30,272 nucleotides of DNA from sequence record ON239131; one strand, given 5' to 3'. Position numbers and translations under genes: made by a program. This stretch comes from Escherichia phage S164. How positions within the stretch are numbered: position 1 is the first letter of the stretch; every line of letters starts with the position of its first letter. Shown here in pieces: positions 20 through 16,240 of this stretch. Below the pieces are notes generated by a model that saw only the letters and a list, made by a program, of their open reading frames with translations, was not told the origin of the DNA and ran no database searches.

Positions 20-161
20 TGCGCGCTGGCGGTGGTGCTGATTTTATTTTTTCAGCGTCTGAGCGCGTCGTGATGGCGTTTAGATTGTTCGCCGGGGCGT
101 TGGTGTGTCTGCGGGCTGTTTTGTGCGGTGGTGAGCGTGTGAGGGCGTGATGACGGGGTGT

Positions 162-183
162 AAAAAAGCCGCCCGCAGGCGGC
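162..183 (-). terminator. Rho-independent terminator downstream of Q
   Basis: On the minus strand, stem GCCGCC, loop TGCG, stem GGCGGC (168..183), followed by TTTTTT (162..167). It lies immediately after the Q stop codon. Confidence 0.75.
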
Positions 184-188
184 GATGT

Positions 189-1223: not shown

Positions 1224-2995
1224 CAGTAAAACTCCAGAATGGTGGATGTCAGCGGAGTGCTGATACCGGCGGTGAGTGGCTCATTTAACAGGGCGTGCAT
1301 GGTCGCCCAGGCGAGGTCGGCGTGGCTGGCTTCCTCGCTGCGGCTGGCCTCATAGGTGGCGCTGCGTCCGCTGCTGGTCATGGTCTTGCGGATAGCCATA
1401 AACGAGCTGGTGATGTCGGTGGCGCTGACGTCATATTCCAGACAGCCACGGCGGATAACGTCTTTTGCCTTGAGCACCATTGCGGTTTTCATTTCCGGCG
1501 TGTAGCGGATATCGCGCGCGGCGGGATAGAACGAGCGCACGAGCTGGAACACACCGACACCGAGGCCGGTGGCATCAATCCCGATGTATTCAACGTTATA
1601 TTTTTCGGTGAGTTTGCGGATGGATTCTGCCTGGGTGGCAAAGTCCATGCCTTTCCACTGGTGACGCTCAAGGATCCTGAATTTGCCACCGGCCACCACC
1701 GGCGGTGCCAGCACCACGCATCCGGCGCTGTCGCCACGGTGTGACGGGTCGTAACCAATCCATACCGGGCGGGAGCCGAACGGATTTGCGGCAAACGGTG
1801 CATAGTCTTCCCATTCTTCCAGCGTATCGACCATGCAGCGTTGCAGCTCCTCGAACGGGAACACCGACGCTTTGTCGTCAACAAATTCACACATGAACAG
1901 GTTTTTAAAATCGTCGGCGCTGTTTTCACGTTTGAGCTGCTCAATGTCGAACAGCGTGCAGCCGCCTTTCAGCGCGTCCTCAATGGTGACAATCTGCCGC
2001 CACTGGCCGTCCGCACAGAGAAGCCCACCGGCAAGGGCGTTATGACTGACGTCGATTTCCACGCGTTCGGCGGCGCTGGCGCGTCCCCGGTTGAACAGTT
2101 CACCCGACCAGAACGGGTAGGCGTCGTGCGCCAGCGTGGACGGGGTGGAGAAATAGGTCGAGCGCAGGTGACTCTGTGAGGCCATACCTGATGCCACCTT
2201 ACGCAGTACCTGAAAATTCGGGATCCAGAAAATCTCGTCGACGTACAGGTCGCCGTTATGGCTCTGTGCGGTGTTGGAGTTGGTGCCGAGAAAAATCAGT
2301 TTTGCACCGTTATTGCCCAGGACAATCGGGTCACCGGTCAGGTCAACGTCAACCAGCCGGGCAAAGGCAATGATGTATTCGCGGAACACATACGCCTGCG
2401 TTTTACTGGCCGACAGAAAAATCTGGTTATGGCCGGTTTTCAGGGCGCGCAGCAGCGCCTCGCGGGAAAAATAAAACGTCGCGCCAATCTGGCGGGATTT
2501 CAGGATATCGCGGATGCGGTGCTCAAGCCCGGCGCGATACCAGTGCAACTGATAGTCGAAAGACTGCTCAAAGAAAATCTGCTCCAGCTTTTCGATGGCC
2601 TCGTCACTGAAAAAATTCTTTTTCGGTTTGCGACGCCCGCCTTTGTTGCGGTTAGCGACGTTCGGATTAAGGTCTGCCTCGTTGCCGGTCTGACTGTAAC
2701 GGTTGACCCGTGCCAGTCGTTCAATCTGGCGTCCGAGCAGGTCAATTTCCTTGAAGTCACCGCCGGTTTTCTGCGGTTTGATGATGAGCTGGGTCAGCCT
2801 CGCTTCCAGACTCATTTCGACACGGCTGATGGGGGCAACGCTGTCCCAGCCGTCGCGCTGTTTCCAGCTCTGCACCGTCGGGCGTTTCATCTGCAACATG
2901 GCGGCAATCTGCGGCACGGAAAATCCCTGCCAGTACAGCAGCGCCGCCTGACGACGCGGGTCGTGTAAAAGAGTGGTGTCTGTGGTGATGGTCAT
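1223..2995 (-). CDS. P: Terminase large subunit (ATPase/nuclease)
   Basis: The track ORF is 600 aa. I chose the internal ATG at 2995 (MTITTDTTLL...), which has a GAGG Shine-Dalgarno sequence upstream and gives 590 aa, as in P2 gpP. Confidence 0.92.
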   Translation of the reverse strand: MTITTDTTLLHDPRRQAALLYWQGFSVPQIAAMLQMKRPTVQSWKQRDGWDSVAPISRVEMSLEARLTQLIIKPQKTGGDFKEIDLLGRQIERLARVNRYSQTGNEADLNPNVANRNKGGRRKPKKNFFSDEAIEKLEQIFFEQSFDYQLHWYRAGLEHRIRDILKSRQIGATFYFSREALLRALKTGHNQIFLSASKTQAYVFREYIIAFARLVDVDLTGDPIVLGNNGAKLIFLGTNSNTAQSHNGDLYVDEIFWIPNFQVLRKVASGMASQSHLRSTYFSTPSTLAHDAYPFWSGELFNRGRASAAERVEIDVSHNALAGGLLCADGQWRQIVTIEDALKGGCTLFDIEQLKRENSADDFKNLFMCEFVDDKASVFPFEELQRCMVDTLEEWEDYAPFAANPFGSRPVWIGYDPSHRGDSAGCVVLAPPVVAGGKFRILERHQWKGMDFATQAESIRKLTEKYNVEYIGIDATGLGVGVFQLVRSFYPAARDIRYTPEMKTAMVLKAKDVIRRGCLEYDVSATDITSSFMAIRKTMTSSGRSATYEASRSEEASHADLAWATMHALLNEPLTAGISTPLTSTILEFY

Positions 2996-3168
2996 GAATA
3001 CCTCGCCGTGATGAATACACGGCAAGGCTACTGAGTCGCGCCCCGCGATTCGCTAAGGTGCTGTTGTGTCAGTGATAAGCCATCCGGGACTGATGGCGGA
3101 GGATGCGCATCGTCGGGAAACTGATGCCGACATGTGACTCCTCTAATCACTATTCAGGACTCCTGACA
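2996..3168. promoter_or_regulatory. Divergent late-promoter region (PP leftward, PO rightward)
   Basis: 173-nt gap between the divergent P and O genes, which is where the Ogr-dependent PP and PO promoters lie in P2. At 3064..3085 it contains TTGTGTCAGTGATAAGCCATCC, which aligns 16/22 with a motif upstream of FI (14958..14979). Exact -10 elements and transcription starts were not resolved. Confidence 0.55.
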
Positions 3169-4023
3169 ATGGCAAAAAAAGTCTCAAAATTCTTTCGTAT
3201 CGGCGTTGAGGGTGACACCTGTGACGGGCGTGTCATCAGTGCGCAGGATATTCAGGAAATGGCCGAAACCTTTGACCCGCGAGTCTATGGTTGCCGCATT
3301 AACCTGGAACATCTGCGCGGCATCCTGCCTGACGGTATTTTTAAGCGTTATGGCGATGTGGCCGAACTGAAGGCCGAAAAGATTGACGATGATTCGGCGC
3401 TGAAAGGCAAATGGGCGCTGTTTGCGAAAATCACCCCGACCGATGACCTTATCGCGATGAACAAGGCCGCGCAGAAGGTCTATACCTCAATGGAAATTCA
3501 GCCGAACTTTGCCAATACCGGCAAATGTTATCTGGTGGGTCTGGCCGTCACCGATGACCCGGCAAGCCTCGGCACGGAATACCTGGAATTCTGCCGCACG
3601 GCAAAACACAACCCCCTGAACCGCTTCAAATTAAGCCCTGAAAACCTGATTTCAGTGGCAACGCCTGTTGAGCTGGAATTTGAAGACCTGCCTGAAACCG
3701 TGTTCACCGCCCTGACCGAAAAGGTGAAATCCATTTTTGGCCGCAAACAGGCCAGCGATGACGCCCGTCTGAATGACGTGCATGAAGCGGTGACCGCTGT
3801 TGCTGAACATGTGCAGGAAAAACTGAGCGCCACTGAGCAGCGCCTCGCTGAGATGGAAACCGCCTTTTCCGCACTTAAGCAGGATGTGACTGACAGGGCG
3901 GATGAAACCAGCCAGGCATTCACCCGCCTGAAAAACAGTCTCGACCACACCGAAAGTCTGACCCAGCAGCGCCGCAGCAAGGCCACCGGTGGTGGCGGTG
4001 ACGCCCTGATGACGAACTGCTGA
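3169..4023 (+). CDS. O: Capsid scaffolding protein
   Basis: Start taken at MAKKVSKFFRIG, inside track ORF 3103..4023, giving 284 aa as in P2 gpO. The C-terminal half looks coiled-coil and the gene lies just before the major capsid gene. Confidence 0.9.
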   Translation: MAKKVSKFFRIGVEGDTCDGRVISAQDIQEMAETFDPRVYGCRINLEHLRGILPDGIFKRYGDVAELKAEKIDDDSALKGKWALFAKITPTDDLIAMNKAAQKVYTSMEIQPNFANTGKCYLVGLAVTDDPASLGTEYLEFCRTAKHNPLNRFKLSPENLISVATPVELEFEDLPETVFTALTEKVKSIFGRKQASDDARLNDVHEAVTAVAEHVQEKLSATEQRLAEMETAFSALKQDVTDRADETSQAFTRLKNSLDHTESLTQQRRSKATGGGGDALMTNC

Positions 4024-4081
4024 CCGGCGTCAGTCAGTCCGGGAAAACCTTCACGATTAACCCTTAATTTCAGGAAAAACT

Positions 4082-5155
4082 ATGCGCCAGGAAACCCGCT
4101 TTAAATTTAATGCCTACCTGTCCCGTGTTGCCGAACTGAACGGCATCGACGCCGGTGATGTGTCGAAAAAATTCACCGTTGAACCGTCGGTCACCCAGAC
4201 CCTGATGAACACCATGCAGGAGTCCTCTGATTTTCTGACCCGCATCAACATTGTGCCGGTCAGCGAAATGAAAGGGGAAAAAATTGGTATTGGTGTCACC
4301 GGCTCCATCGCCAGCACCACCGACACCGCCGGTGGCACCGAGCGTCAGCCGAAGGACTTCTCGAAGCTGGCGTCCAGTAAGTACGAATGCGACCAGATTA
4401 ACTTCGATTTTTATATCCGCTACAAAACGCTGGACCTGTGGGCGCGTTATCAGGATTTCCAGCTCCGTGTCCGTAACGCCATTATCAAACGTCAGTCCCT
4501 TGATTTAATCATGGCCGGTTTTAACGGCGTGAAGCGTGCCGAAACCTCTGACCGCAGCAGCAATCCGATGCTGCAGGATGTGGCGGTCGGCTGGCTGCAG
4601 AAATACCGCAATGAAGCCCCGGCGCGCGTGATGAGCAAGGTTACTGACGAGGAAGGTCACACCACCTCTGAGGTCATCCGCGTGGGTAAGGGCGGTGATT
4701 ATGCCAGCCTCGATGCACTGGTGATGGATGCGACCAACAACCTGATTGAGCCGTGGTATCAGGAAGACCCTGACCTTGTGGTGATTGTGGGGCGTCAGTT
4801 ACTGGCGGACAAGTATTTCCCCATCGTTAACAAGGAGCAGGACAACAGCGAAATGCTGGCCGCTGACGTCATCATCAGCCAGAAACGCATCGGTAACCTG
4901 CCGGCGGTACGCGTCCCGTACTTCCCGGCGGATGCGATGCTCATCACGAAGCTGGAAAACCTGTCCATCTACTACATGGATGACAGCCATCGCCGCGTGA
5001 TTGAGGAAAACCCGAAACTCGACCGCGTGGAGAACTACGAGTCAATGAACATTGATTACGTGGTGGAAGACTACGCCGCCGGTTGTCTGGTGGAAAAAAT
5101 TAAGGTCGGTGACTTCTCCACACCGACTAAAGTGACCGCAGAGCCGGGAGCGTAA
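4082..5155 (+). CDS. N: Major capsid protein
   Basis: 357 aa, with the same length and position as P2 gpN. An AGGAAAAA Shine-Dalgarno-like sequence lies upstream. Confidence 0.93.
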   Translation: MRQETRFKFNAYLSRVAELNGIDAGDVSKKFTVEPSVTQTLMNTMQESSDFLTRINIVPVSEMKGEKIGIGVTGSIASTTDTAGGTERQPKDFSKLASSKYECDQINFDFYIRYKTLDLWARYQDFQLRVRNAIIKRQSLDLIMAGFNGVKRAETSDRSSNPMLQDVAVGWLQKYRNEAPARVMSKVTDEEGHTTSEVIRVGKGGDYASLDALVMDATNNLIEPWYQEDPDLVVIVGRQLLADKYFPIVNKEQDNSEMLAADVIISQKRIGNLPAVRVPYFPADAMLITKLENLSIYYMDDSHRRVIEENPKLDRVENYESMNIDYVVEDYAAGCLVEKIKVGDFSTPTKVTAEPGA

Positions 5156-5158
5156 CCG

Positions 5159-5902
5159 ATGACGAGTCCCGCACAGCGCCACATGATGCGGGTCTCGGCA
5201 GCGATGACCGCGCAGCGGGACGCCGCCCCGCTGCGACATGCAACTGTCTATGAGCAGATGCTGGTCAAGCTGGCCGCAGACCAGCGCACACTGAAAGCGA
5301 TTTATTCAAAAGAGCTGAAGGCCGCGAAAAAACGCGAACTGCTGCCGTTCTGGTTGCCGTGGGTGAACGGCGTGCTGGAGCAGGGCAAAGGTGCACAGGA
5401 TGACATTCTGATGACGGTCATGCTGTGGCGTCTGGATACCGGCGATATTGCCGGTGCGCTGGAGATTGCCCGTTATGCCCTGAAGTACGGTCTGACCATG
5501 CCGGGTAAACACCGCCGCACCCCGCCGTACATGTTCACCGAGGAGGTGGCGCTTGCGGCCATGCGCGCTCACGCTGCCGGTGAGTCTGTGGATCCCCGCC
5601 TGCTGACGGACACCCTCGAACTGACCGCCACGGCTGACATGCCTGATGAAGTGCGCGCAAAGCTGCACAAAATCACCGGTCTGTTTCTGCGTGACGCTGG
5701 TGATGCCGCAGGTGCGCTGGTACACCTGCAACGTGCGACACAGCTCGACTGTCAGGCAGGCGTCAAAAAAGAGATTGAACGACTGGAGCGGGAGCTGAAA
5801 CCGAAGCCGGAGCCGCAGCCCAAAGCGGCCACCCGCACTCCGCGTAAGACCCGGAGCGTGACACCGGCAAAACGTGGACGCCCGAAAAAGAAAACCAGTT
5901 AA
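5159..5902 (+). CDS. M: Terminase small subunit
   Basis: 247 aa, in the P2 gpM position. It has a basic, proline-rich C-terminal tail (KPKPEPQPKAATRTPRKTRSVTPAKRGRPKKKTS). Confidence 0.9.
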   Translation: MTSPAQRHMMRVSAAMTAQRDAAPLRHATVYEQMLVKLAADQRTLKAIYSKELKAAKKRELLPFWLPWVNGVLEQGKGAQDDILMTVMLWRLDTGDIAGALEIARYALKYGLTMPGKHRRTPPYMFTEEVALAAMRAHAAGESVDPRLLTDTLELTATADMPDEVRAKLHKITGLFLRDAGDAAGALVHLQRATQLDCQAGVKKEIERLERELKPKPEPQPKAATRTPRKTRSVTPAKRGRPKKKTS

Positions 5903-6001
5903 CAACCGAATGCGCCCCGCGCCAGGGCGGCACGCCGGTCAGTGAGGGTGAATCACCTGACACTGCACCGGCGTCCACCGCCCGACTTTTCAGAGGTGGT
6001 C

Positions 6002-6511
6002 ATGATGACGCTGATTATTCCGCGAAAGGAGGCTCCCGTGTCCGGTGAGGGTACGGTGGTCATCCCGCAACCGGCAGGCGACGAGCCGGTGATTAAAAAC
6101 ACGTTCTTTTTTCCCGATATCGACCCGAAGCGCGTCCGGGAACGTATGCGCCTTGAGCAGACCGTCGCCCCCGCCCGTCTGCGTGAGGCCATCAAGTCAG
6201 GCATGGCTGAAACAAATGCGGAGCTGTACGAGTACCGCGAACAGAAAATTGCCGCCGGTTTTACGCGTCTGGCGGACGTTCCGGCGGACGACATCGACGG
6301 TGAAAGTATCAAAGTTTTTTACTACGAGCGCGCCGTGTGTGCGATGGCGACCGCGTCGCTTTATGAGCGTTATCGCGGCGTGGATGCCAGTGCGAAAGGC
6401 GACAAGAAGGCTGACAGCATTGACAGCACCATTGATGAACTGTGGCGGGATATGCGCTGGGCGGTGGCGCGTATCCAGGACAAGCCGCGCTGCATCGTGA
6501 GTCAAATCTGA
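6002..6511 (+). CDS. L: Head completion / stabilisation protein
   Basis: Start taken at MMTLIIPRKEAP, inside track ORF 5942..6511, giving 169 aa as in P2 gpL. Confidence 0.85.
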   Translation: MMTLIIPRKEAPVSGEGTVVIPQPAGDEPVIKNTFFFPDIDPKRVRERMRLEQTVAPARLREAIKSGMAETNAELYEYREQKIAAGFTRLADVPADDIDGESIKVFYYERAVCAMATASLYERYRGVDASAKGDKKADSIDSTIDELWRDMRWAVARIQDKPRCIVSQI

Positions 6512-6714
6512 TGAAGACCTTTGCGCTACAGGGCGACACGCTCGACGCCATTTGTGTCCGGTATTACGGGCGCACTGAGGGCGTGGTTGAGACCGTGCTC
6601 GCCGCAAATCCGGGACTGGCTGAACTGGGTGCGGTGCTGCCACACGGCACCGCCGTCGAACTGCCCGACGTTCAGACCGCGCCCGTGGCTGAAACTGTCA
6701 ATCTGTGGGAGTAA
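6511..6714 (+). CDS. X: Tail protein X (LysM-like)
   Basis: 67 aa starting at MKTFALQGDTLDAICVRYYG, with the ATG overlapping the L stop (ATGA). The LysM-like motif and the position match P2 gpX. Confidence 0.88.
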   Translation: MKTFALQGDTLDAICVRYYGRTEGVVETVLAANPGLAELGAVLPHGTAVELPDVQTAPVAETVNLWE

Positions 6715-6717
6715 CGC

Positions 6718-6999
6718 ATGACAGCAGAAGAAAAAAGCGTCCTGTCGCTTTTCATGATTGGGGTGCTGATTGTTGTCGGCAAGGTGCTTGCCGGTGGTGA
6801 ACCCATCACCCCGCGTCTGTTTATCGGGCGCATGTTGCTCGGTGGTTTTGTCTCGATGGTTGCCGGTGTTGTTCTGGTGCAGTTTCCTGACCTGTCACTG
6901 CCTGCAGTGTGCGGCATCGGCTCCATGCTGGGTATCGCCGGTTATCAGGTGATTGAGATTGCCATTCAGCGCCGCTTTAAGGGCAGGGGGAAACCGTAA
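6718..6999 (+). CDS. Y: Holin
   Basis: 93 aa with hydrophobic segments and a basic C-terminus, located directly upstream of the endolysin gene as in P2. Confidence 0.88.
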   Translation: MTAEEKSVLSLFMIGVLIVVGKVLAGGEPITPRLFIGRMLLGGFVSMVAGVVLVQFPDLSLPAVCGIGSMLGIAGYQVIEIAIQRRFKGRGKP

Positions 7000-7496
7000 T
7001 GCCGGTAATTAACACGCATCAGAATATCGCCGCCTTTCTCGACATGCTGGCGGTATCCGAAGGGACGGCAAATCATCCGCTGACGAAAAACCGTGGCTAT
7101 GACGTGATAGTCACCGGACTGGACGGGAAGCCGGAAATTTTCACCGACTACAGTGACCACCCGTTCGCGCATGGCCGACCGGCGAAGGTGTTTAACCGTC
7201 GCGGTGAAAAATCCACGGCCTCCGGTCGCTATCAGCAGCTTTACCTGTTCTGGCCGCATTACCGCAAACAGCTTGCCCTGCCGGATTTCAGTCCGTTGTC
7301 ACAGGACAGACTCGCCATTCAGTTGATCCGCGAACGCGGTGCGCTGGATGACATCCGGGCGGGACGCATTGAGCGCGCCATTTCACGCTGTCGCAATATC
7401 TGGGCGTCCCTGCCGGGTGCCGGTTACGGTCAGCGTGAGCATTCACTGGAAAAACTGGTCACCGTCTGGCGTACCGCTGGCGGCGTACCGGCTTAA
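6999..7496 (+). CDS. K: Endolysin (lambda R-like lytic transglycosylase/lysozyme fold)
   Basis: 165 aa. The motifs FLDMLAVSEGT, GYDVIV, FTDYSDHP and NIWASLPGAGYGQ closely parallel lambda R and P2 gpK. Confidence 0.92.
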   Translation: MPVINTHQNIAAFLDMLAVSEGTANHPLTKNRGYDVIVTGLDGKPEIFTDYSDHPFAHGRPAKVFNRRGEKSTASGRYQQLYLFWPHYRKQLALPDFSPLSQDRLAIQLIRERGALDDIRAGRIERAISRCRNIWASLPGAGYGQREHSLEKLVTVWRTAGGVPA

Positions 7497-7510
7497 ACGG
7501 AGTAAACACC

Positions 7511-7936
7511 ATGAAGAAATTATCCCTTTCACTGATGCTGAACGTGTCGCTGGCGCTGATGCTGGCACTGTCCCTGATTTACCCGCAGAGCGTGGCCGTC
7601 AATTTTGTCGCCGCCTGGGCGATTCTGGCGATGGTTATCTGTGTGGTTGTCGGTGGTGTCGGCGTGTATGCCACTGAGTATGTGCTGGAACGCTACGGGC
7701 GGGAGCTGCCGCCGGAATCGCTGGCCGTGAAGATTGTCACGTCGCTGTTTTTGCAGCCGGTGCCGTGGCGCAGACGGGCGGCGGCTCTGGTAGTGATGGT
7801 GGCGACGTTTATCTCGCTGGTTGCCGCCGGGTGGATTTTTACTGCGCTGATTTATCTCGTGGCGTCGCTGTTTTTCCGGCTGATACGTACGGCCTGCCGT
7901 CAGCGTCTTGAGGGGCGGGAACTATGTCAAAGCTGA
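7511..7936 (+). CDS. lysA: Lysis-timing membrane protein LysA
   Basis: 141 aa, a multi-spanning hydrophobic protein in the P2 lysA position. Confidence 0.8.
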   Translation: MKKLSLSLMLNVSLALMLALSLIYPQSVAVNFVAAWAILAMVICVVVGGVGVYATEYVLERYGRELPPESLAVKIVTSLFLQPVPWRRRAAALVVMVATFISLVAAGWIFTALIYLVASLFFRLIRTACRQRLEGRELCQS

Positions 7937-8349
7937 TGATTGTGCTGGTCGTGTTGTTATCGCTGGCGGTGGCCGGTCTGTTTCTGGTGAAACACAAAAA
8001 TGCCAGCCTGCGCGCCTCGCTGGGCAGGGCGAATAACGTCGCCAGTGAACAGCTGACGACCATCACCATGCTGAAAAATCAGCTTCATGTTGCGCTCACC
8101 AGAGCAGACAAAAACGAGCTGGCGCAGGTGGCACTGCGTCAGGAACTGGAGAACACCGCGAAGCGTGAAGCACAGCGCGAGAAAACCATCACGAGGTTAC
8201 TCAATGAAAACGAAGATTTTCGCCGCTGGTACGGCGCTGGCCTGCCTGATGCTGTGCGCCGGTTGCACCAGCGCCCGGCCTGCACCGACGCCAGTGATTG
8301 TCGCCAACGCCTGCCCGAAAGTGAGCCTTTGCCCGATGCCGGGCAGTGA
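7924..8349 (+). CDS. lysB: Spanin, inner-membrane subunit (Rz-like) LysB
   Basis: 141 aa with an N-terminal TM helix followed by a charged coiled-coil region. It contains the embedded lysC frame. Confidence 0.85.
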   Translation: MSKLMIVLVVLLSLAVAGLFLVKHKNASLRASLGRANNVASEQLTTITMLKNQLHVALTRADKNELAQVALRQELENTAKREAQREKTITRLLNENEDFRRWYGAGLPDAVRRLHQRPACTDASDCRQRLPESEPLPDAGQ

Positions 8350-8494
8350 CCCGGAGACGAACGGCGATTTAAGTGCCGATATCCGACAGCTTGAGAACGC
8401 GCTGGCACGCTGTGCCAGCCAGGTAAAAATGATTAAACACTGTCAGGACGAAAACGATGCTCAAACCCGACAGCCTGCGCAGGGCGCTGACTGA
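8204..8494 (+). CDS. lysC: Spanin, outer-membrane lipoprotein subunit (Rz1-like) LysC, embedded/overlapping in the +1 frame of lysB
   Basis: ATG at 8204 with a GAGG Shine-Dalgarno sequence 8 nt upstream. The N-terminus is MKTKIFAAGTALACLMLCAGC, a signal peptide ending in a Cys, and the mature part is proline-rich. It is 96 aa, as I recall for P2 LysC. Confidence 0.8.
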   Translation: MKTKIFAAGTALACLMLCAGCTSARPAPTPVIVANACPKVSLCPMPGSDPETNGDLSADIRQLENALARCASQVKMIKHCQDENDAQTRQPAQGAD

Positions 8495-8924
8495 TGCCGT
8501 CACGGTGCTGAAAACCAGCCCCGAGATGCTGCGGATATTCGTGGATAACGGGAGTATTGCCTCCACACTGGCGGCGTCGTTGTCATTCGAAAAGCGTTAC
8601 ACGCTCAATGTGATTGTGACCGACTTTACCGGTGATTTTGACCTGCTCATCGTGCCGGTGCTGGCGTGGCTGCGGGAAAATCAGCCCGACATCATGACCA
8701 CCGACGAAGGCCAGAAAAAAGGTTTCACGTTTTATGCAGACATCAACAATGACAGCAGCTTTGATATCAGCATCAGCCTGATGCTGACCGAGCGCACGCT
8801 GGTCAGCGAGGTTGACGGTGCGCTGCATGTGAAGAATATCCCGGAACCCCCGCCGCCGGAGCCGGTCACCCGCCCGGTGGAGCTTTATATCAATGGCGAA
8901 CTGGTGAGCAAGTGGGATGAATGA
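8457..8924 (+). CDS. R: Tail completion protein
   Basis: 155 aa, matching P2 gpR in position and length. Confidence 0.88.
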   Translation: MLKPDSLRRALTDAVTVLKTSPEMLRIFVDNGSIASTLAASLSFEKRYTLNVIVTDFTGDFDLLIVPVLAWLRENQPDIMTTDEGQKKGFTFYADINNDSSFDISISLMLTERTLVSEVDGALHVKNIPEPPPPEPVTRPVELYINGELVSKWDE

Positions 8925-9369
8925 GTTTAAGCGTTTTGAAGACCGGCTGACCGGACTGACTGAATCGCTGTCACCGTCAGGGCGTCGGCGACTGAGCGCC
9001 GAACTGGCGAAACGTCTGCGTCAGAGTCAGCAGCGTCGGGTGATGGCACAGAAAGCCCCGGACGGCACACCCTACGCGCCACGCCAGCAGCAGAGCGCCA
9101 GAAAAAAGACTGGTCGTGTTAAGCGAAAAATGTTTGCGAAACTTATCACCAGTCGTTTTTTGCATATCCGCGCCAGCCCGGAACAGGCATCAATGGAATT
9201 TTACGGCGGGAAGTCGCCGAAAATCGCCAGTGTGCATCAGTTCGGTCTGTCGGAAGAAACCCGGAAAGACGGTAAGAAAATTGATTATCCGGCGCGTCCT
9301 CTGCTCGGCTTTACCGGTGAGGATGTGCAGATGATTGAAGAGATTATCCTGGCTCACCTCGACCGTTAG
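8917..9369 (+). CDS. S: Tail completion protein
   Basis: 150 aa, matching P2 gpS in position and length. It overlaps the end of R. Confidence 0.88.
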   Translation: MNEFKRFEDRLTGLTESLSPSGRRRLSAELAKRLRQSQQRRVMAQKAPDGTPYAPRQQQSARKKTGRVKRKMFAKLITSRFLHIRASPEQASMEFYGGKSPKIASVHQFGLSEETRKDGKKIDYPARPLLGFTGEDVQMIEEIILAHLDR

Positions 9370-9435
9370 TTGTGCCATCCCCGACACCTCATCGTCACAT
9401 TGCCGCCGGTATGACCCGGCGGCATCCTTCCCGTT
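9370..9435 (+). promoter_or_regulatory. S-V intergenic control region (candidate late promoter PV elements plus a perfect hairpin)
   Basis: TTGTGCCATCCC at 9370..9381 matches TTGTGTCATCCC upstream of FI at 11 of 12 positions. A perfect 9-bp hairpin, TGCCGCCGG-tatgac-CCGGCGGCA, lies at 9401..9424. P2 has a late promoter (PV) before V. The exact promoter architecture was not resolved. Confidence 0.45.
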
Positions 9436-10071
9436 ATGAACACTCTCGCAAATATTCAGGAACTCGCGCGCGCACTGCGCAACATGATTCGCACCGGCCT
9501 TGTCGTCGAAACCGACCTTAACGCCGGTCGCTGCCGTGTGCAGACCGGCGGCATGTGCACCGACTGGCTTCAGTGGCTGACCTGTCGTGCCGGGCGTTCG
9601 CGCACATGGTGGGCACCTTCCGTGGGGGAGCAGGTGCTGATTCTGGCCGTGGGCGGTGAACTTGACACGGCGTTCGTTCTGCCGGGGATTTATTCCGGTG
9701 ATAACCCCTCGCCGTCTGTGTCGGCGGATGCCCTGCATATCCGTTTCCCTGACGGGGCGGTGATTGAATATGAACCCGAAACCAGTGCACTCACGGTAAG
9801 CGGAATTAAAACGGCCAGCGTGACGGCTTCTGATTCTGTTACTGCCACGGTGCCTGTGGTCACGGTGAAAGCGTCAACCCGTGTCACCCTGGACACACCG
9901 GAAGTGGTCTGCACTAACAAACTGACTACCGGCACGCTGGAAGTGCAGAAGGGCGGGACGATGCGCGGCAACATTGAACACACCGGCGGTGAACTCTCAT
10001 CAAACGGTAAGGTACTGCATACCCATAAACACCCCGGCGACAGCGGCGGCACAACCGGGGGACCTCTATGA
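9436..10071 (+). CDS. V: Baseplate central spike/hub protein
   Basis: 211 aa, matching my memory of P2 gpV (MNTLANIQELARALRNMIRTG...). Confidence 0.92.
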   Translation: MNTLANIQELARALRNMIRTGLVVETDLNAGRCRVQTGGMCTDWLQWLTCRAGRSRTWWAPSVGEQVLILAVGGELDTAFVLPGIYSGDNPSPSVSADALHIRFPDGAVIEYEPETSALTVSGIKTASVTASDSVTATVPVVTVKASTRVTLDTPEVVCTNKLTTGTLEVQKGGTMRGNIEHTGGELSSNGKVLHTHKHPGDSGGTTGGPL

Positions 10072-10415
10072 CTGCGCGTTATCTCGGAATGAATCGCAGT
10101 GATGGCCTGACTGTCACTGACCTTGAGCATATCAGCCAGAGTATCGGCGATATCCTGCGCACACCGGTCGGCTCACGGGTGATGCGTCGTGATTACGGCT
10201 CGTTGCTGGCATCAATGATTGACCAGCCGCAGACCCCGGCGCTTGAGTTGCAGATTAAGGTCGCCTGTTACATGGCGGTGCTGAAATGGGAACCCCGCGT
10301 CACCCTGTCATCTGTCACCACGGCGCGCAGCTTTGACGGGCGAATGACGGTCACGTTAACCGGCCAGCACAACGACACCGGCCAGTCACTTTCGTTAACC
10401 ATCCCTGTGAGTTGA
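10068..10415 (+). CDS. W: Baseplate wedge protein (gp25-like)
   Basis: 115 aa in the P2 gpW position, with its start overlapping the V stop (ATGA). Confidence 0.9.
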   Translation: MTARYLGMNRSDGLTVTDLEHISQSIGDILRTPVGSRVMRRDYGSLLASMIDQPQTPALELQIKVACYMAVLKWEPRVTLSSVTTARSFDGRMTVTLTGQHNDTGQSLSLTIPVS

Positions 10416-10419
10416 AACC

Positions 10420-11328
10420 ATGCCGATTATCGACCTGAACCAGCTACCCGCACCGGATGTGGTCGAAGAGCTGGACTTTGAAACCATTCTTGCCGAACGC
10501 AAGGCGACACTGATTTCCCTTTACCCGGAAGACCAGCAGGAGGCGGTCGCCCGTACCCTGACGCTGGAATCCGAGCCTCTCGTCAAGCTGCTGGAGGAAA
10601 ATGCTTATCGTGAGCTTATCTGGCGTCAGCGTGTGAATGAGGCCGCACGGGCGGTGATGCTGGCCTGTGCCGCCGGTAATGACCTTGATGTGATTGGTGC
10701 CAATTACAACACCACGCGCCTGACTATCACCCCGGCAGACGATTCGACCATCCCGCCGACACCGGCAGTGATGGAATCTGACACCGATTATCGGTTGCGT
10801 ATTCAGCAGGCGTTTGAAGGTTTAAGCGTCGCCGGGTCGGTGGGTGCCTATCAGTATCATGGTCGCAGTGCTGACGGGCGTGTCGCCGATATTTCTGTCA
10901 CCAGTCCGTCTCCGGCCTGCGTTACTATCTCTGTGCTGTCACGTGAAAATAACGGCGTCGCATCCGAAGACCTGCTGGCTGTGGTGCGTAACGCCCTTAA
11001 TGGCGAGGACGTCAGGCCGGTGGCCGACCGCGTGACCGTGCAGTCTGCCGCCATTGTTGAATACCAGATAAACGCCACGCTTTACCTTTACCCTGGTCCC
11101 GAAAGCGAACCCATCCGCGCTGCTGCCGTGAAAAAACTGGAAGCGTACATCACGGCACAGCACCGGCTGGGGCGCGATATCCGTCTGTCTGCCATTTATG
11201 CCGCTTTGCATGTGGAAGGCGTGCAGCGTGTCGAACTGGCTGCACCGCTGGCCGACATCGTGCTCAACAGTACGCAGGCGTCTTTCTGTACCGAATACCG
11301 CGTCGTGACCGGAGGCTCGGATGAGTGA
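10420..11328 (+). CDS. J: Baseplate wedge protein J
   Basis: 302 aa, matching P2 gpJ in position and length. Confidence 0.9.
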   Translation: MPIIDLNQLPAPDVVEELDFETILAERKATLISLYPEDQQEAVARTLTLESEPLVKLLEENAYRELIWRQRVNEAARAVMLACAAGNDLDVIGANYNTTRLTITPADDSTIPPTPAVMESDTDYRLRIQQAFEGLSVAGSVGAYQYHGRSADGRVADISVTSPSPACVTISVLSRENNGVASEDLLAVVRNALNGEDVRPVADRVTVQSAAIVEYQINATLYLYPGPESEPIRAAAVKKLEAYITAQHRLGRDIRLSAIYAALHVEGVQRVELAAPLADIVLNSTQASFCTEYRVVTGGSDE

Positions 11329-11932
11329 TTCGCGCCTGCTGCCGACCGGCTCATCACCGCTTGAGGTCGCCGCCGCAAAAGCCTGTGCGGAAATTGAAAA
11401 AACGCCGGTCAGTATTCGTGAGCTGTGGAACCCGGACACCTGCCCGGCAAATCTGCTGCCGTGGCTGGCGTGGTCATTTTCGGTTGACCGCTGGGATGAT
11501 AAGTGGCCGGAAGCGACAAAACGCGCTGTTATCCGCGATGCGTATTTCATTCACTGCCATAAGGGCACTATAGGCGCAATCCGGCGTGTGGTGGAGCCGC
11601 TCGGCTATCTGATTGAGGTGAGGGAGTGGTGGCAACTCAACGAGGAGCCGGGGACGTTCCGCATCGTTGTTGGCGTGCTTGAGCAGGGTATTACCGAGGA
11701 AATGTATCAGGAGCTGGAGCGTCTCGTTGCTGATGCAAAACCTGCAAGCCGCCATCTGACGGGACTGGCTATCAGTTTAAGTACAACCGGCAACATTTTT
11801 GCCGGTGCGGGATGCTATCACGGCGACGCCCTGACGGTTTATCCCTACACCCCGGAGGCCATTATTGTCGGAGGGGATTATTTCCCGGCCTCGGCCATTC
11901 ATTTAATTGATAACCTGAGAGTAAACGCATGA
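11321..11932 (+). CDS. I: Baseplate / tail-fibre attachment protein I (variant C-terminus)
   Basis: The first ~100 residues match my memory of P2 gpI. From about EWW onward the sequence diverges, and the protein is 203 aa rather than the 176 aa I recall for P2. Confidence 0.85.
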   Translation: MSDSRLLPTGSSPLEVAAAKACAEIEKTPVSIRELWNPDTCPANLLPWLAWSFSVDRWDDKWPEATKRAVIRDAYFIHCHKGTIGAIRRVVEPLGYLIEVREWWQLNEEPGTFRIVVGVLEQGITEEMYQELERLVADAKPASRHLTGLAISLSTTGNIFAGAGCYHGDALTVYPYTPEAIIVGGDYFPASAIHLIDNLRVNA

Positions 11933-13344
11933 CAGTGAAATACTACGCCATTCTGACTAATCAGGGCGCGGCACGGCTGGCTAACGCGACGATGCTCGGA
12001 AGTAAGCTGAATCTGACGCAAATGGCCGTTGGTGATGCGAATGGTGTCTTGCCGACACCAGACCCGGCACAGACAAAGCTGATTAATCAGAAACGCATTG
12101 CACCGCTGAATCTTCTGAGTGTTGACCCGAACAACCAGAGCCAGATTATTGCGGAGCAAATCATCCCTGAGAACGAGGGCGGATTCTGGATCCGTGAGAT
12201 TGGGCTTTATGATGATGAAGGCGTACTCATTGCGGTGGCGAACTGCCCGGAAACGTACAAACCGCAGTTGCAGGAAGGCAGTGGTCGTACCCAGACTATC
12301 CGCATGATTCTGGTTGTCACGAACACCGAAGCCATCACGCTGAAAATCGACCCGTCGGTGGTACTGGCGACCCGTAAATACGTGGATGATAAGGTCCTGG
12401 AATTAAAGCTGTATGTGGATGACCAGATGAGAAACCACATTGCCGCACAGGATCCTCATACCCAGTATGCACAGAAACATAATCCGACATTTACCGGAGA
12501 ACCAAAAGCGCCGACGCCTGCCGCAGGAAATAACACCACGCGGATTGCGACTACTGCGTTTGTTCAGGCCGCTATTACCGCTCTGATTAACGGTGCGCCA
12601 GCCACGCTGGACACACTGAAAGAAATTGCCGCAGCCATTAACAATGACCCGAAATTCAGTACCACCATTAACAATGCGCTGGCACTAAAAGCCCCGCTGT
12701 CGAGTCCGGCACTCACCGGAACGCCAACAGCACCTACTGCGGCACAGTCGGTCAACAATACACAGATTGCCACCACGGCTTTTGTGAAATCAGCAATTGC
12801 GGCAATGGTGGGTTCTGCCCCTGCGGCACTGGATACACTGAATGAACTGGCGGCGGCGCTGGGGAATGACCCTAACTTTTCAACAACAGTGCTTAATGCA
12901 CTGGCAGGTAAACAACCGCTGGACAATACGCTGACTAATTTGAGTGGAAAGGATGTAGCTGGTCTTCTCGCATACCTTCAATTGGGAGAAGCGGCAAAAC
13001 GTAATGTCGGCACCGGTGCAAACCAGATACCGGACATGAACAGTTTTACGTCAGGAAGTACGACAACAGCAGACTGGTACAAGTTACCTGGTGGGTTGCT
13101 TATTCAGTCAGGGATTAATGCGGTTGGTTATATTGGTTCGCCGTTTACTATCGGTCTTCCGGTTGCATTTTCGAACGCCAATTACCGCATAGTTGCCAGT
13201 TATGACAACGCGAGAGCTAACGCAACCTACGGTTTTGCAATGTCTGCCCTCCCGTCAACTGCATCAGCATTCACAATTAACTCAAGTTCAAATGCATCAG
13301 TCGGGCCGGTTTACGCTTACTGGATTGCAATCGGTAAATACTAA
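11929..13344 (+). CDS. H: Tail fibre protein, currently expressed form (constant part 11929..12978 plus variable tip 12979..13344)
   Basis: 471 aa. The N-terminus carries the conserved GGFWIREIGLYDDEGVLIAVAN motif of P2 H / Mu S / P1 S-type fibres. There are two tandem fibre repeats, and an invertase crossover site lies inside the gene at 12965..12990. Confidence 0.9.
   Translation: MTVKYYAILTNQGAARLANATMLGSKLNLTQMAVGDANGVLPTPDPAQTKLINQKRIAPLNLLSVDPNNQSQIIAEQIIPENEGGFWIREIGLYDDEGVLIAVANCPETYKPQLQEGSGRTQTIRMILVVTNTEAITLKIDPSVVLATRKYVDDKVLELKLYVDDQMRNHIAAQDPHTQYAQKHNPTFTGEPKAPTPAAGNNTTRIATTAFVQAAITALINGAPATLDTLKEIAAAINNDPKFSTTINNALALKAPLSSPALTGTPTAPTAAQSVNNTQIATTAFVKSAIAAMVGSAPAALDTLNELAAALGNDPNFSTTVLNALAGKQPLDNTLTNLSGKDVAGLLAYLQLGEAAKRNVGTGANQIPDMNSFTSGSTTTADWYKLPGGLLIQSGINAVGYIGSPFTIGLPVAFSNANYRIVASYDNARANATYGFAMSALPSTASAFTINSSSNASVGPVYAYWIAIGKY
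12481..12921 (+). repeat. Tandem ~73-aa tail-fibre repeat inside H (2 copies: 12481..12699 and 12700..12921)
   Basis: NPTFTGEPKAPTPAAGNNTTRIATTAFVQAAITALINGAPATLDTLKEIAAAINNDPKFSTTINNALALKAPL aligns with SSPALTGTPTAPTAAQSVNNTQIATTAFVKSAIAAMVGSAPAALDTLNELAAALGNDPNFSTTVLNALAGKQPL. Confidence 0.85.
12965..12990 (+). promoter_or_regulatory. Left 26-bp DNA-invertase crossover site (hix/gix/cix-like) inside H
   Basis: TTCTCGCATACC-TT-CAATTGGGAGAA. It has TTCTC...GAGAA ends and a central TT, and it matches the reverse complement of the site at 14316..14341 at 17 of 26 positions. It resembles the Hin/Gin half-site TT(A/C)TCnnAAACC. Confidence 0.75.
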
Positions 13345-13356
13345 AAGGCAAATATC

Positions 13357-13779
13357 ATGGGTGAAACAGATTATATTTTCAGTGCGTTCCTGAATGGTTT
13401 TTTACCGCTGGCGTGGAAAGAAGAGAAAGAGGCAACAGGTTCGTGGCCTGATGACGCAATTGAAATAAGCTATGAAGATTATTTGAAGTTTACGACCGAT
13501 GCGCCGAAGGGAAAAATATTGGGTTCGGTTGACGGGCGACCGGCATGGGTTGATATCCCACCGCCGACACATGAAGAACTGATTGCCAGTGCAGAAGCAA
13601 CAAGATTAAGACTGAAGGCTAATGCAGATGCTGAAATCGGCTGGCGACAGGATGCCGTTGATGCGGGCATTGCGACGGACGAGGAAACCGCCATACTCGC
13701 CGAGTGGAAAAAATACCGGGTCTTGCTGATGCGCGTCGACACAGCAAAACCCGTATGGCCTACGCTTCCGACTGCATAA
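13357..13779 (+). CDS. Tail fibre assembly chaperone (Tfa; functional analogue of P2 G / Mu U)
   Basis: 140 aa. The C-terminal part (ATDEETAILAEWKKYRVLLMRVDTAKPVWPTLP) carries the W-K-x-Y-R-x-x-L-x-R-V-D signature shared by lambda Tfa, P2 G and Mu U. It lies directly after the fibre gene. Confidence 0.85.
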   Translation: MGETDYIFSAFLNGFLPLAWKEEKEATGSWPDDAIEISYEDYLKFTTDAPKGKILGSVDGRPAWVDIPPPTHEELIASAEATRLRLKANADAEIGWRQDAVDAGIATDEETAILAEWKKYRVLLMRVDTAKPVWPTLPTA

Positions 13780-13945
13780 TATCAATTAATATCGGTTCGC
13801 CGTTCTCATCGACGGCGAGCATTTTCCCAGCCGGTATTTCTGTTGCGGTAAAAAACCAGTTATCATCCGGCAGTTCTACGGCCCCTTCAGTGCTATGAAT
13901 GCCGGGGATAACTTCATTAAGTGTCTCAGGATTAAAAAGGCGCAT
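13760..13945 (-). CDS. Alternative tail fibre assembly protein, N-terminal domain only (61 aa; truncated or remnant)
   Basis: Start taken at MRLFNPETLNEV..., with the ATG at 13945 overlapping the end of the alternative fibre tip. It ends ...ENGEPILIDIMQSEA*, exactly where full-length Tfa proteins continue into the conserved C-terminal domain. Its last 20 nt overlap the 3' end of the plus-strand tfa. Confidence 0.6.
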   Translation of the reverse strand: MRLFNPETLNEVIPGIHSTEGAVELPDDNWFFTATEIPAGKMLAVDENGEPILIDIMQSEA

Positions 13946-14327
13946 AGCGAGCACTCCAATAAAAACCGTCAGCGGATGTTGTTCCATCAGATCGTAATAC
14001 AAGAAAAGTAGCTTTTGTTGCATCAGTTAAATCAGTTATGACCATCGGTACCCTGACCTTATAAGGGGTTGCTGATGACAATAACAGCGGAGTGGTAGTG
14101 ATAACCTGTGCAGGAGCAGGCAGAGAAATCGGATAATAAACCGCAGCATTTCCCGATATGTTAGCCACAGCATTTCCCCACACCTCTATAGTGCCATCGC
14201 TCCAGATTCGGTATTTACCATTCGCATTCGAGCCTGTTTTAGTCACCACGGCACATTTATCTGTATCGGTATTAACGTTACCAATCAGTGCCAATTTTCC
14301 ACTGGTATTTCCCGCTTCTGCTAAACG
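13932..14327 (-). CDS. Silent alternative tail-fibre C-terminal tip (Hv'), with no start of its own; expressed only after inversion
   Basis: The minus-strand frame reads RLAEAGNTSGKLALIGNVNTDTDK...FYWSARYAPF* (131 codons) from the crossover site. It is in the same codon phase as H at the left site, so inversion would produce a 481-aa fibre. Confidence 0.75.
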   Translation of the reverse strand, partial: RLAEAGNTSGKLALIGNVNTDTDKCAVVTKTGSNANGKYRIWSDGTIEVWGNAVANISGNAAVYYPISLPAPAQVITTTPLLLSSATPYKVRVPMVITDLTDATKATFLVLRSDGTTSADGFYWSARYAPF

Positions 14328-14341
14328 AACGTTTATGAAAA
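14316..14341 (-). promoter_or_regulatory. Right 26-bp DNA-invertase crossover site (inverted relative to the left site)
   Basis: On the minus strand: TTTTCATAAACG-TT-CGTTTAGCAGAA. The half-sites TTTTCATAAACG and TTCTGCTAAACG are near-symmetric and fit the Hin/Gin/Cin consensus. The central TT is identical to that of the left site. Confidence 0.8.
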
Positions 14342-14396
14342 TGCAGAGATAACGGGTAACTGGCATCATCTCCGGTTTTTATTCAGGGGGATGCTC

Positions 14397-14990
14397 ATGC
14401 TTATTGGCTATGTACGCGTGTCAACAAATGACCAGAACACGGAATTGCAGCGTAACGCGCTGGAGTGCGCGGGATGTGAGCGGATTTTTGAGGACAAAAT
14501 CAGCGGCACGAAGTCCGACCGACCGGGACTGAAAAAACTGCTCAGAACATTATCAGCAGGTGACACTCTGGTAGTCTGGAAGCTGGACAGGCTGGGGCGT
14601 AGTATGCGGCATCTGGTCATTCTGGTTGAGGAACTGCGCGAACGCGGCGTTAATTTTCGCAGCCTGACAGATGCTATTGATACCAGCACGCCGATGGGGC
14701 GTTTTTTCTTTCATGTGATGGGTGCCCTGGCTGAAATGGAGCGAGAACTCATTGTCGAGCGGACACGCGCCGGACTGGAAGCGGCCAGAGCTAAAGGTCG
14801 TATTGGTGGCAGACGTCCGAAACTCACCGCGAGTGAGTGGGAGCAGGCCGGGCGGTTGCTGGCTGCAGGGGAATCACGTCAACGCGTGGCACTGATTTTT
14901 GATATTGGCCTGTCCACGCTCTATAAAAAATTCCCCGCCTCAGTGACAAAAAATAAATTGTGTCATCCCTTAGCCAACCGGGACAAATAG
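14397..14990 (+). CDS. Serine DNA invertase (Hin/Gin/Cin/Pin family)
   Basis: MLIGYVRVSTNDQNT...DRPGL...GDTLVVWKLDRLGRSM...MGRFFFHVMGALAEMERELIVERT...GRIGGRRPKL...STLYKKFPA is collinear with Gin and Hin. The catalytic Ser is present in the YVRVST motif. I preferred the second ATG (14397) because of its spacing from the GGGGG Shine-Dalgarno sequence. Confidence 0.93.
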   Translation: MLIGYVRVSTNDQNTELQRNALECAGCERIFEDKISGTKSDRPGLKKLLRTLSAGDTLVVWKLDRLGRSMRHLVILVEELRERGVNFRSLTDAIDTSTPMGRFFFHVMGALAEMERELIVERTRAGLEAARAKGRIGGRRPKLTASEWEQAGRLLAAGESRQRVALIFDIGLSTLYKKFPASVTKNKLCHPLANRDK

Positions 14991-15049
14991 CCTGACATCT
15001 CCGGCACAACTGAAAATATCACTCACCCATTAACCACGGAGTTAAACGG
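14958..15049 (+). promoter_or_regulatory. Candidate Ogr-dependent late promoter PF region
   Basis: TTGTGTCATCCCTTAGCCAACC at 14958..14979 is shared with the PO and PV upstream regions. An AT-rich -10-like sequence, AAATATCAC, lies around 15014..15022, about 50 nt downstream. This is consistent with P2 late promoters, which carry an upstream activator site near -55. The region precedes FI. Confidence 0.5.
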
Positions 15050-16240
15050 ATGAGTGACTATCATCACGGCGTGCAGGTGCTGGAGATTAACGACGGCACC
15101 CGCGTCATTTCCACCGTATCCACTGCCATTGTCGGCATGGTCTGCACGGCCAGCGATGCGGATGCGGAAACCTTCCCCCTCAATAAACCGGTGCTGATTA
15201 CCAATGTGCAGAGCGCAATTGCAAAGGCCGGTAAAAAAGGCACGCTGGCGGCATCGTTGCAGGCCATCGCCGACCAGTCAAAACCGGTCACCGTTGTCGT
15301 GCGTGTGGAAGACGGCACCGGCGACGACGAGGAAACGAAACTCGCGCAGACCGTTTCCAATATCATCGGCACCACTGACGAAAACGGTCAGTACACCGGA
15401 CTGAAAGCCCTGCTGGCGGCGGAGTCGGTAACCGGTGTTAAACCGCGTATTCTTGGTGTGCCGGGGCTGGATACCAAAGAGGTGGCTGTTGCACTGGCAT
15501 CAGTCTGTCAGAAGCTGCGCGCTTTCGGATATATCAGCGCATGGGGCTGTAAAACCATTTCCGAGGTGAAAGCCTACCGCCAGAATTTCAGCCAGCGTGA
15601 GCTGATGGTCATCTGGCCGGATTTCCTCGCATGGGATACGGTCACCAGTACCACCGCCACCGCGTATGCCACCGCCCGTGCGCTGGGTCTGCGCGCTAAA
15701 GTCGACCAGGAGCAGGGCTGGCATAAAACGCTGTCCAACGTCGGGGTAAACGGTGTTACCGGCATCAGCGCCTCTGTATTCTGGGATTTGCAGGAGTCCG
15801 GCACCGATGCTGACCTGCTTAACGAGTCAGGCGTCACTACGCTGATTCGCCGCGACGGTTTCCGATTCTGGGGTAACCGTACCTGCTCTGATGACCCGCT
15901 GTTCCTCTTTGAAAACTACACCCGCACCGCGCAGGTGCTGGCCGACACGATGGCTGAGGCGCACATGTGGGCGGTGGACAAGCCCATCACCGCAACGCTG
16001 ATTCGCGACATCGTTGACGGCATCAATGCCAAATTCCGTGAGCTGAAAACAAACGGCTATATCGTGGATGCGACCTGCTGGTTCAGCGAAGAATCCAACG
16101 ATGCGGAAACCCTCAAGGCCGGAAAACTGTATATCGACTACGACTATACCCCGGTGCCTCCTCTCGAAAACCTGACCCTGCGCCAGCGTATTACCGATAA
16201 ATACCTGGCAAATCTGGTCACCTCGGTTAACAGCAATTAA
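15050..16240 (+). CDS. FI: Contractile tail sheath protein
   Basis: 396 aa, with P2 gpFI sequence and position. Confidence 0.93.
   Translation: MSDYHHGVQVLEINDGTRVISTVSTAIVGMVCTASDADAETFPLNKPVLITNVQSAIAKAGKKGTLAASLQAIADQSKPVTVVVRVEDGTGDDEETKLAQTVSNIIGTTDENGQYTGLKALLAAESVTGVKPRILGVPGLDTKEVAVALASVCQKLRAFGYISAWGCKTISEVKAYRQNFSQRELMVIWPDFLAWDTVTSTTATAYATARALGLRAKVDQEQGWHKTLSNVGVNGVTGISASVFWDLQESGTDADLLNESGVTTLIRRDGFRFWGNRTCSDDPLFLFENYTRTAQVLADTMAEAHMWAVDKPITATLIRDIVDGINAKFRELKTNGYIVDATCWFSEESNDAETLKAGKLYIDYDYTPVPPLENLTLRQRITDKYLANLVTSVNSN

Follow-up and report, generated by a model that had tools for sequence, protein, structure and literature searches.

Escherichia phage S164 carries in its tail fibre region an invertible DNA cassette in which a short open reading frame (ORF) of 61 amino acids (aa) accompanies one of two alternative fibre tips. 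The stretch analysed here, the window, comprises 30,272 nucleotides (nt) of sequence record ON239131 and corresponds over its whole length to an apparently complete P2-like (Peduovirus) prophage. Positions 1–12899 share 97% identity with E. coli phages of the P2 family. The likeness of the backbone to P2-like phages stops about 65 nt ahead of a crossover site inside the tail fibre gene H. The product of the short ORF, which we name mini-Tfa, is placed by homology searches in a conserved, unannotated protein family that is Tfa-like and consists of the N-terminal domain (N-domain) only. The features of the fibre region are listed below with their positions in the window (E, expect value of the profile match).

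11929–13344, plus strand: whole ORF of gene H (471 aa; Phage_tail_fib N-domain and Gp53-like_C tip)
11929–12976, plus strand: constant N-terminal part of tail fibre gene H, P2 type (Pfam Phage_tail_fib, residues 1–150, E 3e-62)
12965–12990: left 26-bp crossover site, within H (TTCTCGCATACC TT CAATTGGGAGAA; inverted repeat I1)
12977–13344, plus strand: fibre tip A, which completes the 471-aa H and is expressed in the window orientation (Gp53-like_C, E 1e-12)
13357–13779, plus strand: complete Tfa of 140 aa, with N-domain and conserved C-terminal module (C-module) (Caudo_TAP E 5.8e-31, residues 14–138; phrog_188 E 2.5e-46)
13760–13945, minus strand: mini-Tfa, 61 aa, stand-alone, homologous only to the Tfa N-terminal domain (homology, conservation, structural model)
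13932–14329, minus strand: fibre tip B, silent in the window orientation (weak Gp53-like_C match, E 5e-4)
13932–14369, minus strand: tip-B ORF as it stands (145 aa)
14316–14341: right 26-bp crossover site (TTCTGCTAAACG AA CGTTTATGAAAA)
14391–14990, plus strand: serine DNA invertase of the Hin/Gin/Cin/Pin type (Resolvase PF00239 E 8e-53; HTH_7 PF02796 E 6e-13)
from 15050: sheath gene

The invertible cassette and the extent of the short ORF

The mini-Tfa ORF reads MRLFNPETLNEV...GEPILIDIMQSEA followed by its stop codon. Residues 1–56, which end in ...GEPILIDI, are the conserved domain, and residues 57–61 (MQSEA), a tail without conservation, are encoded by the antisense strand of the tfa 3′ end. 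The two genes share 20 nt (2 nt of codon 56, the five codons MQSEA, and the stop). The original prediction, made from the window alone, had described an asymmetric switch in which one tip travels with the complete 140-aa tfa and the other with an N-domain-only partner that stops 5 codons into the tfa antisense. The ORF calls bear out both statements, the first of them together with the Caudo_TAP match. A GGAG motif is found 8–11 nt ahead of the ATG at 13945; the tip's conserved Trp codon, together with the one that follows it (Ser or Arg), supplies these four letters. The 14 nt at 13932–13945 are dual-coding: tip B uses them for its four final codons and its stop (YAPF and stop), and mini-Tfa for its five initial codons (MRLFN). 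The concern that the start had been mis-called and that a longer, full-length ORF exists is not supported. An 87-aa version could begin at an in-frame ATG at 14023, but the homologues begin with MRLFNP and the position of the ribosome-binding site (RBS) fits 13945.

The conserved part of mini-Tfa ends where the two modules of Tfa meet, as had been proposed. Alignment to the neighbouring tfa (31% identity) places the break at ...GRPAWVDI/PPP, and alignment to a full-length relative, gene_1 of Cronobacter phage JK004, places it at ...EPVLQDI/PAPTP (the slash marks the break), both of which identify it as the boundary between N-domain and C-module. The AT-rich palindrome reported at this point is present, although its coordinates were one base off (13779–13792 instead of 13778–13791). 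As a recombination or breakpoint signal it was rejected: the sequence, ATATCAATTAATAT, is made of the codons for I-L-I-D-I, is not conserved in relatives and is incidental.

The invertible segment is about 1.35 kb long (12977–14329) and is bounded by the sites at 12965–12990 and 14316–14341, the longest inverted repeat pairing 12965–12998 with 14308–14341. The cores of the two crossover sites are TTCTCGCATACC-TT-CAATTGGGAGAA on the left and, read on the reverse strand, TTTTCATAAACG-TT-CGTTTAGCAGAA on the right; they are inverted, 17/26 identical to each other and matched in the central TT/AA. Compared with what we take to be the hix, gix and cix sequences, 14–19 of the 26 positions match. The codon phase is equal at both sites and recombination would thus yield an in-frame fusion. 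Inversion of 12977–14329 in silico gave an in-frame fibre of 481 aa ending in ...GFYWSARYAPF, with the mini-Tfa ORF as the next one downstream and sharing 14 nt with the fibre stop region. Both orientations exist in nature, as two loci that are 99.1–99.9% identical (L012 and L013) differ by a 1.6-kb segment inverted as a whole, and relatives of the cassette are seen in either orientation. A near-identical cassette was not found in E. coli complete genomes, where only mosaic pieces were detected (coverage ≤22%).

The layout is that of the Mu G, P1 C and e14 P segments and of the cassette of phage KC618326, which likewise feature a serine invertase, 26-bp inverted sites within the fibre gene, a fibre whose constant N-terminal part can be joined to one or another C-terminus, and helper genes that converge in the middle of the segment. 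In those switches both tips are provided with a complete Tfa, whereas in the window cassette and in many of its relatives one of the partners is N-domain-only. That other switches have a complete chaperone for each tip, as had been presumed, is true of KC618326, whose P2-like backbone is the closest one among phages (97% to window positions 1–12899). Its symmetric cassette, at 2219–3236, encodes two complete convergent Tfa of 200 and 147 aa whose genes overlap by 29 nt. Its presence on a backbone 97% identical to that of the window implies exchange of symmetric and asymmetric cassettes on one and the same backbone.

Homology, conservation and predicted structure of mini-Tfa

Mini-Tfa matches PHROG 5400 over profile positions 1–62 of 145 (E 6e-17) and JK004 gene_1, a Caudo_TAP-positive protein of 128 aa, with 43% identity over 56 residues (E 2e-15). 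Comparison of the mini-Tfa family profile with a full-length Tfa profile (hhalign) gave a probability of 98.7% for template columns 2–61 of 136, a test that is partly circular as the full-length profile includes members with the same N-domain type. The mini-Tfa sequence matched no Pfam family at E ≤ 1 and no NCBIfam family, and nothing meaningful was found among the chains of the PDB. With the Tfa/Caudo_TAP family (PF02413; lambda Tfa, P2 gpG, Mu U/U′, P1 U/U′) it shares its place directly downstream of, and co-oriented with, the fibre gene, its homology to the N-terminal domain of family members (JK004 gene_1 and proteins P0092 and P0112), and its specificity for one fibre-tip family. It differs in lacking the entire conserved C-terminal helical module (...W.KYR..L.RVD...WP motif), in its length (~60 aa as compared to 130–200 aa) and in falling below the Pfam gathering score (no match).

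A search for relatives that covered 5.8 billion proteins retrieved 78 protein clusters with 58–97% identity to mini-Tfa, every one of them 56–86 aa long and all annotated as ‘hypothetical’. They come from Citrobacter, Escherichia, Yersinia, Enterobacter, Hafnia, Cronobacter, Kosakonia, Salmonella, Pseudescherichia and Erwinia. Conservation spans residues 1–56, and the 1–12 residues that follow the ...GEP.L.D motif are unrelated between lineages. Because protein clusters depend on gene calling, copies were also retrieved by tblastn on viral contigs (IMG/VR). This identified 65 loci, whose 62 complete copies are all open ORFs of 58–69 codons, none of them fused to a C-module or interrupted by an internal stop. 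The start codon is a normal ATG or GTG in 60 of the 62 and is atypical or disrupted in the other two (L041 and L090). Among relatives with at least 58% identity no full-length version of the mini-Tfa N-domain was found. Stand-alone proteins of ~60 aa are thus the norm in this family, as one of the outcomes foreseen by the original prediction had it; that they are also functional would follow from their conservation pattern.

The ratio of non-synonymous to synonymous substitution rates (dN/dS) was estimated pairwise by the Nei-Gojobori method on codons 2–55 of 14 distinct sequences (40 pairs). Its median is 0.15 (range 0.07–0.34). Between most lineages the synonymous sites have reached saturation; of the pairs that are informative, the closest one, the window and L008, differs at 10 synonymous and 5 non-synonymous positions (dN/dS 0.12). 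The mini-Tfa ORF is under purifying selection. AlphaFold2 run on the family alignment (predicted local distance difference test, pLDDT, 91.1; predicted template modelling score, pTM, 0.72) returned residues 1–56 as ordered and beta-rich and the tail as disordered, a confident prediction of an autonomous small beta-rich domain.

The N-domain is also found in other company. A wider profile search against 1.8 billion representative proteins recovered it alone, in proteins of 55–70 aa that include distant lineages (P0085, P0086, P0091, P0102); joined to a canonical Tfa C-module in P0092, P0099 and P0112 (Caudo_TAP E ~1e-20) and in JK004; and joined to a Phage_tail_APC (PF16778) C-module in P0100 (E 1.3e-9). 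The Phage_tail_APC match of P0095 is weak and below the Pfam threshold (E 0.008), and P0101 resembles P0100 by eye only. Other C-terminal regions are fused to the N-domain as well. That the partner can be Caudo_TAP or Phage_tail_APC indicates that chaperone C-modules of two kinds have been exchanged by domain shuffling. The nearest full-length form of the mini-Tfa N-domain is only ~45% identical, so that loss and gain of the C-module cannot be told apart as the direction of change. The N-domain-only form is nevertheless old and has been maintained.

Short proteins of the same kind, but of different sequence, were found beside other fibres. E. coli EC11 (L001 2440–2673, minus strand) has the same cassette layout with an unrelated short ORF of 77 aa, which shares 20 nt with the 3′ end of tfa. 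Its family comprises 34 clusters, about two-thirds of them 77–80 aa long and the shorter ones N-terminal pieces. Only the N-terminus resembles the phrog_188 Tfa family, and weakly so; this would make it a second N-domain-only family. Together with a 74-aa protein of Yersinia (see below) and the MRLFNP family to which mini-Tfa belongs, at least three unrelated N-domain-only families appear to exist beside Gp53-like tips. The lytic, cultured Pantoea phage LIMEzero encodes a further case, ORF47 (L032 8277–8459), an N-domain-only Tfa-like protein of 60 aa located directly after the fibre gene. It was the best structural match of the mini-Tfa model among viral predicted structures (Foldseek probability 0.96, template modelling (TM) score 0.55, E 0.078) and shares 45% identity with the N-terminal parts of the full-length Tfa found in SfII, SfV and related phages. 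ORF47, a ‘tail fiber assembly protein’ in RefSeq, ends at the same domain boundary as mini-Tfa (...GDNGPTLDLI). Its N-domain belongs however to a different sequence family (35% identity over 40 residues, E 0.002) and its host phage is a podovirus in which the locus is non-invertible, unlike the window cassette. No description of N-domain-only Tfa proteins was found in the literature searched, which was one limited collection.

Genomic contexts of the short gene

In all of the 89 loci examined, which have 40 different upstream ends, the gene upstream of mini-Tfa belongs to one and the same tip family, whose members finish with the C-terminal motif ...F[SY]W[RS]V.Y.AP[VFI] or a close variant directly before the stop. 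The 14-nt overlap of fibre and mini-Tfa genes and the GGAG provided by the Trp codon are usual across the 89 loci. The elements that carry the pair are diverse: P2-like, Mu-like, wedge-type and lambda-like (gpJ) prophages and one P1-like plasmid. Three arrangements were distinguished.

In the first arrangement, which is that of the window, the short gene lies in an invertible cassette and converges on a full-length tfa of one of various types (131–203 aa), in either orientation. The second is found in Yersinia, where a mini-Tfa family member of 57 aa faces an N-domain-only relative of the phrog_188 Tfa of 73/74 aa, with a bidirectional terminator between them. Such cassettes differ from the Mu/P1-type switches in that both partners are N-domain-only. 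Loci of this kind, with both partners short, occur in lambda-like prophages of Yersinia enterocolitica (L024 3001–3434). In the same species an orphan 46-aa ORF matching the Caudo_TAP C-module is present downstream of the invertase at two loci (L025 4628–4768 and L027 2732–2872).

In the third arrangement neither an invertase nor a full-length tfa is found near the short gene, which occupies the place of P2 gene G. In Erwinia aeris and Ca. Erwinia dacicola (L006, L007) it is the sole gene between H and the sheath gene, the latter beginning ~140–150 nt downstream. In Kosakonia (L029, L030) it is followed by an intrinsic terminator and then by the sheath gene, and in Cronobacter turicensis (L028) by a terminator and then by host genes. 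In IMG/VR, 8 or more additional loci lack an invertase and have the sheath gene 330–510 nt downstream. The stand-alone copies in these prophages have their own RBS and terminator. This arrangement demonstrates that the short form is independent of a neighbouring tfa.

A separate case is the Enterobacter hormaechei plasmid p60214CZ_1 (L099; 90.8 kb, non-mobilizable), which carries phage tail, holin, lysis and head genes. A family member of 65 aa (3501–3698) is found there amid several fibre and Tfa fragments, in what is possibly a region of multiple inversions.

In cassettes with a convergent tfa the junction between the two genes is fixed: the tfa stop codon always falls on nt 167–169 of the short ORF (codons 56/57), positions 13777–13779 in the window, and this is kept despite at least 4 C-module types with different last codons. 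The junction is found in 8/8 lineages and is shared by L003, L004, L005, L008, L012, L016, L020 and most of L034–L095. Among the tblastn loci, all 45 in which a convergent C-module was detected have TAA or TAG at nt 167–169; of the remaining complete loci, 9 have a stop at this position and 8 do not. The simplest reading would be common descent followed by divergence and modular exchange. The fixed position may reflect one ancestral junction or some constraint.

Role of mini-Tfa and alternative explanations

The available excerpts of the work on Mu Tfa and Pam3 gp25 (PMC9608196 and PMC7882524, citing North et al. [quoted passage not shown] They also state that Mu Tfa stays on the fibre tip in virions and contributes to receptor recognition (PMC9608196). 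In terms of that model, as presented in the excerpt of PMC9608196, mini-Tfa would correspond to the ‘tentacle’, the fibre-binding beta domain; it lacks the helical trimerisation domain present in Pam3 gp25 and Mu Tfa.

We consider it likely, from the comparative evidence, that the 61-aa ORF is a real, conserved gene whose product is an N-domain-only cognate partner of the tip-B family, and that the flipped state of the switch works. In this scheme the invertase would flip 12977–14329 and so fuse tip B in frame to the constant part of H. Mini-Tfa would then lie directly downstream, with its 14-nt overlap with the fibre stop and a GGAG supplied by the Trp codon and the next one, a position from which co-transcription and probably translational coupling with the new fibre are expected. 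Its product could bind the C-terminus of tip B and help it to fold, remain on it as a cap, or do both, and the tip-B family would not need the trimerising C-module of canonical Tfa. If mini-Tfa assists or caps tip B without a C-module, the flipped orientation would be a working state rather than a dead end. The anatomy of the locus, the homology and conservation of mini-Tfa, the purifying selection, the stand-alone occurrence and the inversion in relatives are direct observations; tip binding, chaperone or cap activity, and dispensability of the C-module are what we infer from them. Of the three possibilities raised by the original prediction (a crippling deletion, sufficiency of the N-domain, and supply of the conserved module in trans), sufficiency of the N-domain is the one best supported by comparative genomics.

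Several points weigh against this interpretation. Published work assigns fibre oligomerisation to the C-module, the very part that mini-Tfa lacks. The mini-Tfa model has no detectable similarity to solved structures, 5YVQ included. A close homologue of mini-Tfa or of tip B is absent from the cultured phages of INPHARED (50,697 phage records), and phage and plasmid collections hold nearly no close homologue, the only hits being JK004 (distant and full-length) and one Enterobacter phage-plasmid; the prophages that have mini-Tfa only could be defective or tailocins. (A match of tip B to Xanthomonas phage DIBBI was set aside as uninformative.) Finally, tip A of the same cassette is also a Gp53-like_C tip, yet a full Tfa accompanies it, so that a dispensable C-module is not accounted for by the fold of the tip alone.

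An alternative is that mini-Tfa has a role other than folding, either as a tip cap or adhesin subunit that changes receptor specificity or as a regulator or blocker of the fibre, tip B folding unaided. The compact domain predicted with confidence and the strict linkage to one tip family fit such a role, as does the persistence of Mu Tfa on the tip, with a part in receptor recognition, according to PMC9608196. Computationally it is indistinguishable from assistance in folding, and the two overlap since a chaperone may stay bound. We hold an exclusively non-folding function to be unlikely.

A split chaperone, in which the N-domain-only protein uses a C-module supplied in trans, is improbable. 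The C-module could come from the neighbouring Tfa, from an orphan C-module ORF or from the Tfa of other prophages, of which enterobacterial hosts usually carry several with conserved Tfa C-modules. A full tfa does adjoin the short ORF in most cassettes, with a strikingly fixed junction, and Yersinia L025 and L027 have the orphan 46-aa Caudo_TAP ORF. Supply by the other tfa of the window is however unlikely because, after the flip, the late transcript reads the neighbouring tfa in antisense and 12900–15100 showed no sigma-70-like promoter, and because at least a dozen loci have neither a tfa nor a C-module within reach. L024 and L026 lack the orphan C-module, which looks like what is left of a lambda-type tfa that has been replaced. 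Moreover, no case is known to us in which a C-module acts on a fibre untethered.

The original prediction had also considered a deletion of ~240 nt that made one orientation a dead end. According to this explanation a tfa′ that was once complete has lost its C-module, what remains is non-functional, and flipped particles have no fibre or a misfolded one. It accords with the existence of full-length proteins with the same N-domain (JK004 gene_1, P0092, P0099, P0112), with the two complete Tfa of KC618326 on the closest P2-like backbone, and with the way in which the ORF enters the tfa antisense directly, with no spacer. A dead relic is contradicted by the uniformly short relatives at or above 58% identity, by a dN/dS of ~0.15 with saturated synonymous sites, by the 62 complete tblastn copies without an internal stop, and by prophages without an invertase or any tfa in which the gene stands alone, equipped with an RBS and a terminator of its own, all of which makes it very improbable. 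Ancient loss of the C-module is possible, the gene having since then been kept by selection. A nested switch, in which a second pair of sites around the tfa C-module would let this module complete either N-domain, was suggested by the break exactly at the domain boundary and by the AT-rich palindrome there, but was rejected as having a negligible probability: no third crossover-like site (at least 15/26 matches to either core) is present in 12800–14450, no inverted repeat joins 13550–13570 with 13775–13795, the two orientation states of the same prophage (L012/L013) differ by inversion of the whole segment only, close relatives have no full-length version of the N-domain, and the palindrome is not conserved.

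Retention of a working N-domain-only partner, the reading favoured here, bears on the two-domain model of Tfa. With binding assigned to the N-domain and trimer assembly to the C-module, the model predicts that an N-domain-only protein should fail as a chaperone. A selected family of such proteins, which is the sole helper gene in some prophages, is a direct natural test of the role of the C-module and challenges the generality of the model. On the broader proposition, that widespread helpers of ~56 aa form a natural minimal class fully sufficient for assembly and/or capping of one tip family, we are evenly divided. If it holds, the ‘oligomerisation’ C-module of Tfa would be dispensable for some fibres, and the N-domain would be an independently evolving mobile module, used alone or with a Caudo_TAP or a Phage_tail_APC C-module. 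There are also practical consequences. As mini-Tfa genes are annotated ‘hypothetical protein’ everywhere, they could be omitted when fibres are transplanted to retarget phages or tailocins, and host-range prediction should not treat an invertible cassette as a dead end because it looks ‘degenerate’.

A 16-nt direct repeat (15/16 identical) was also noticed in the cassette, at 13130–13145 (ATATTGGTTCGCCGTT) and 13789–13804 (ATATCGGTTCGCCGTT). One copy is located within tip A and the other is antisense to the mini-Tfa ORF; the repeat is probably due to chance.

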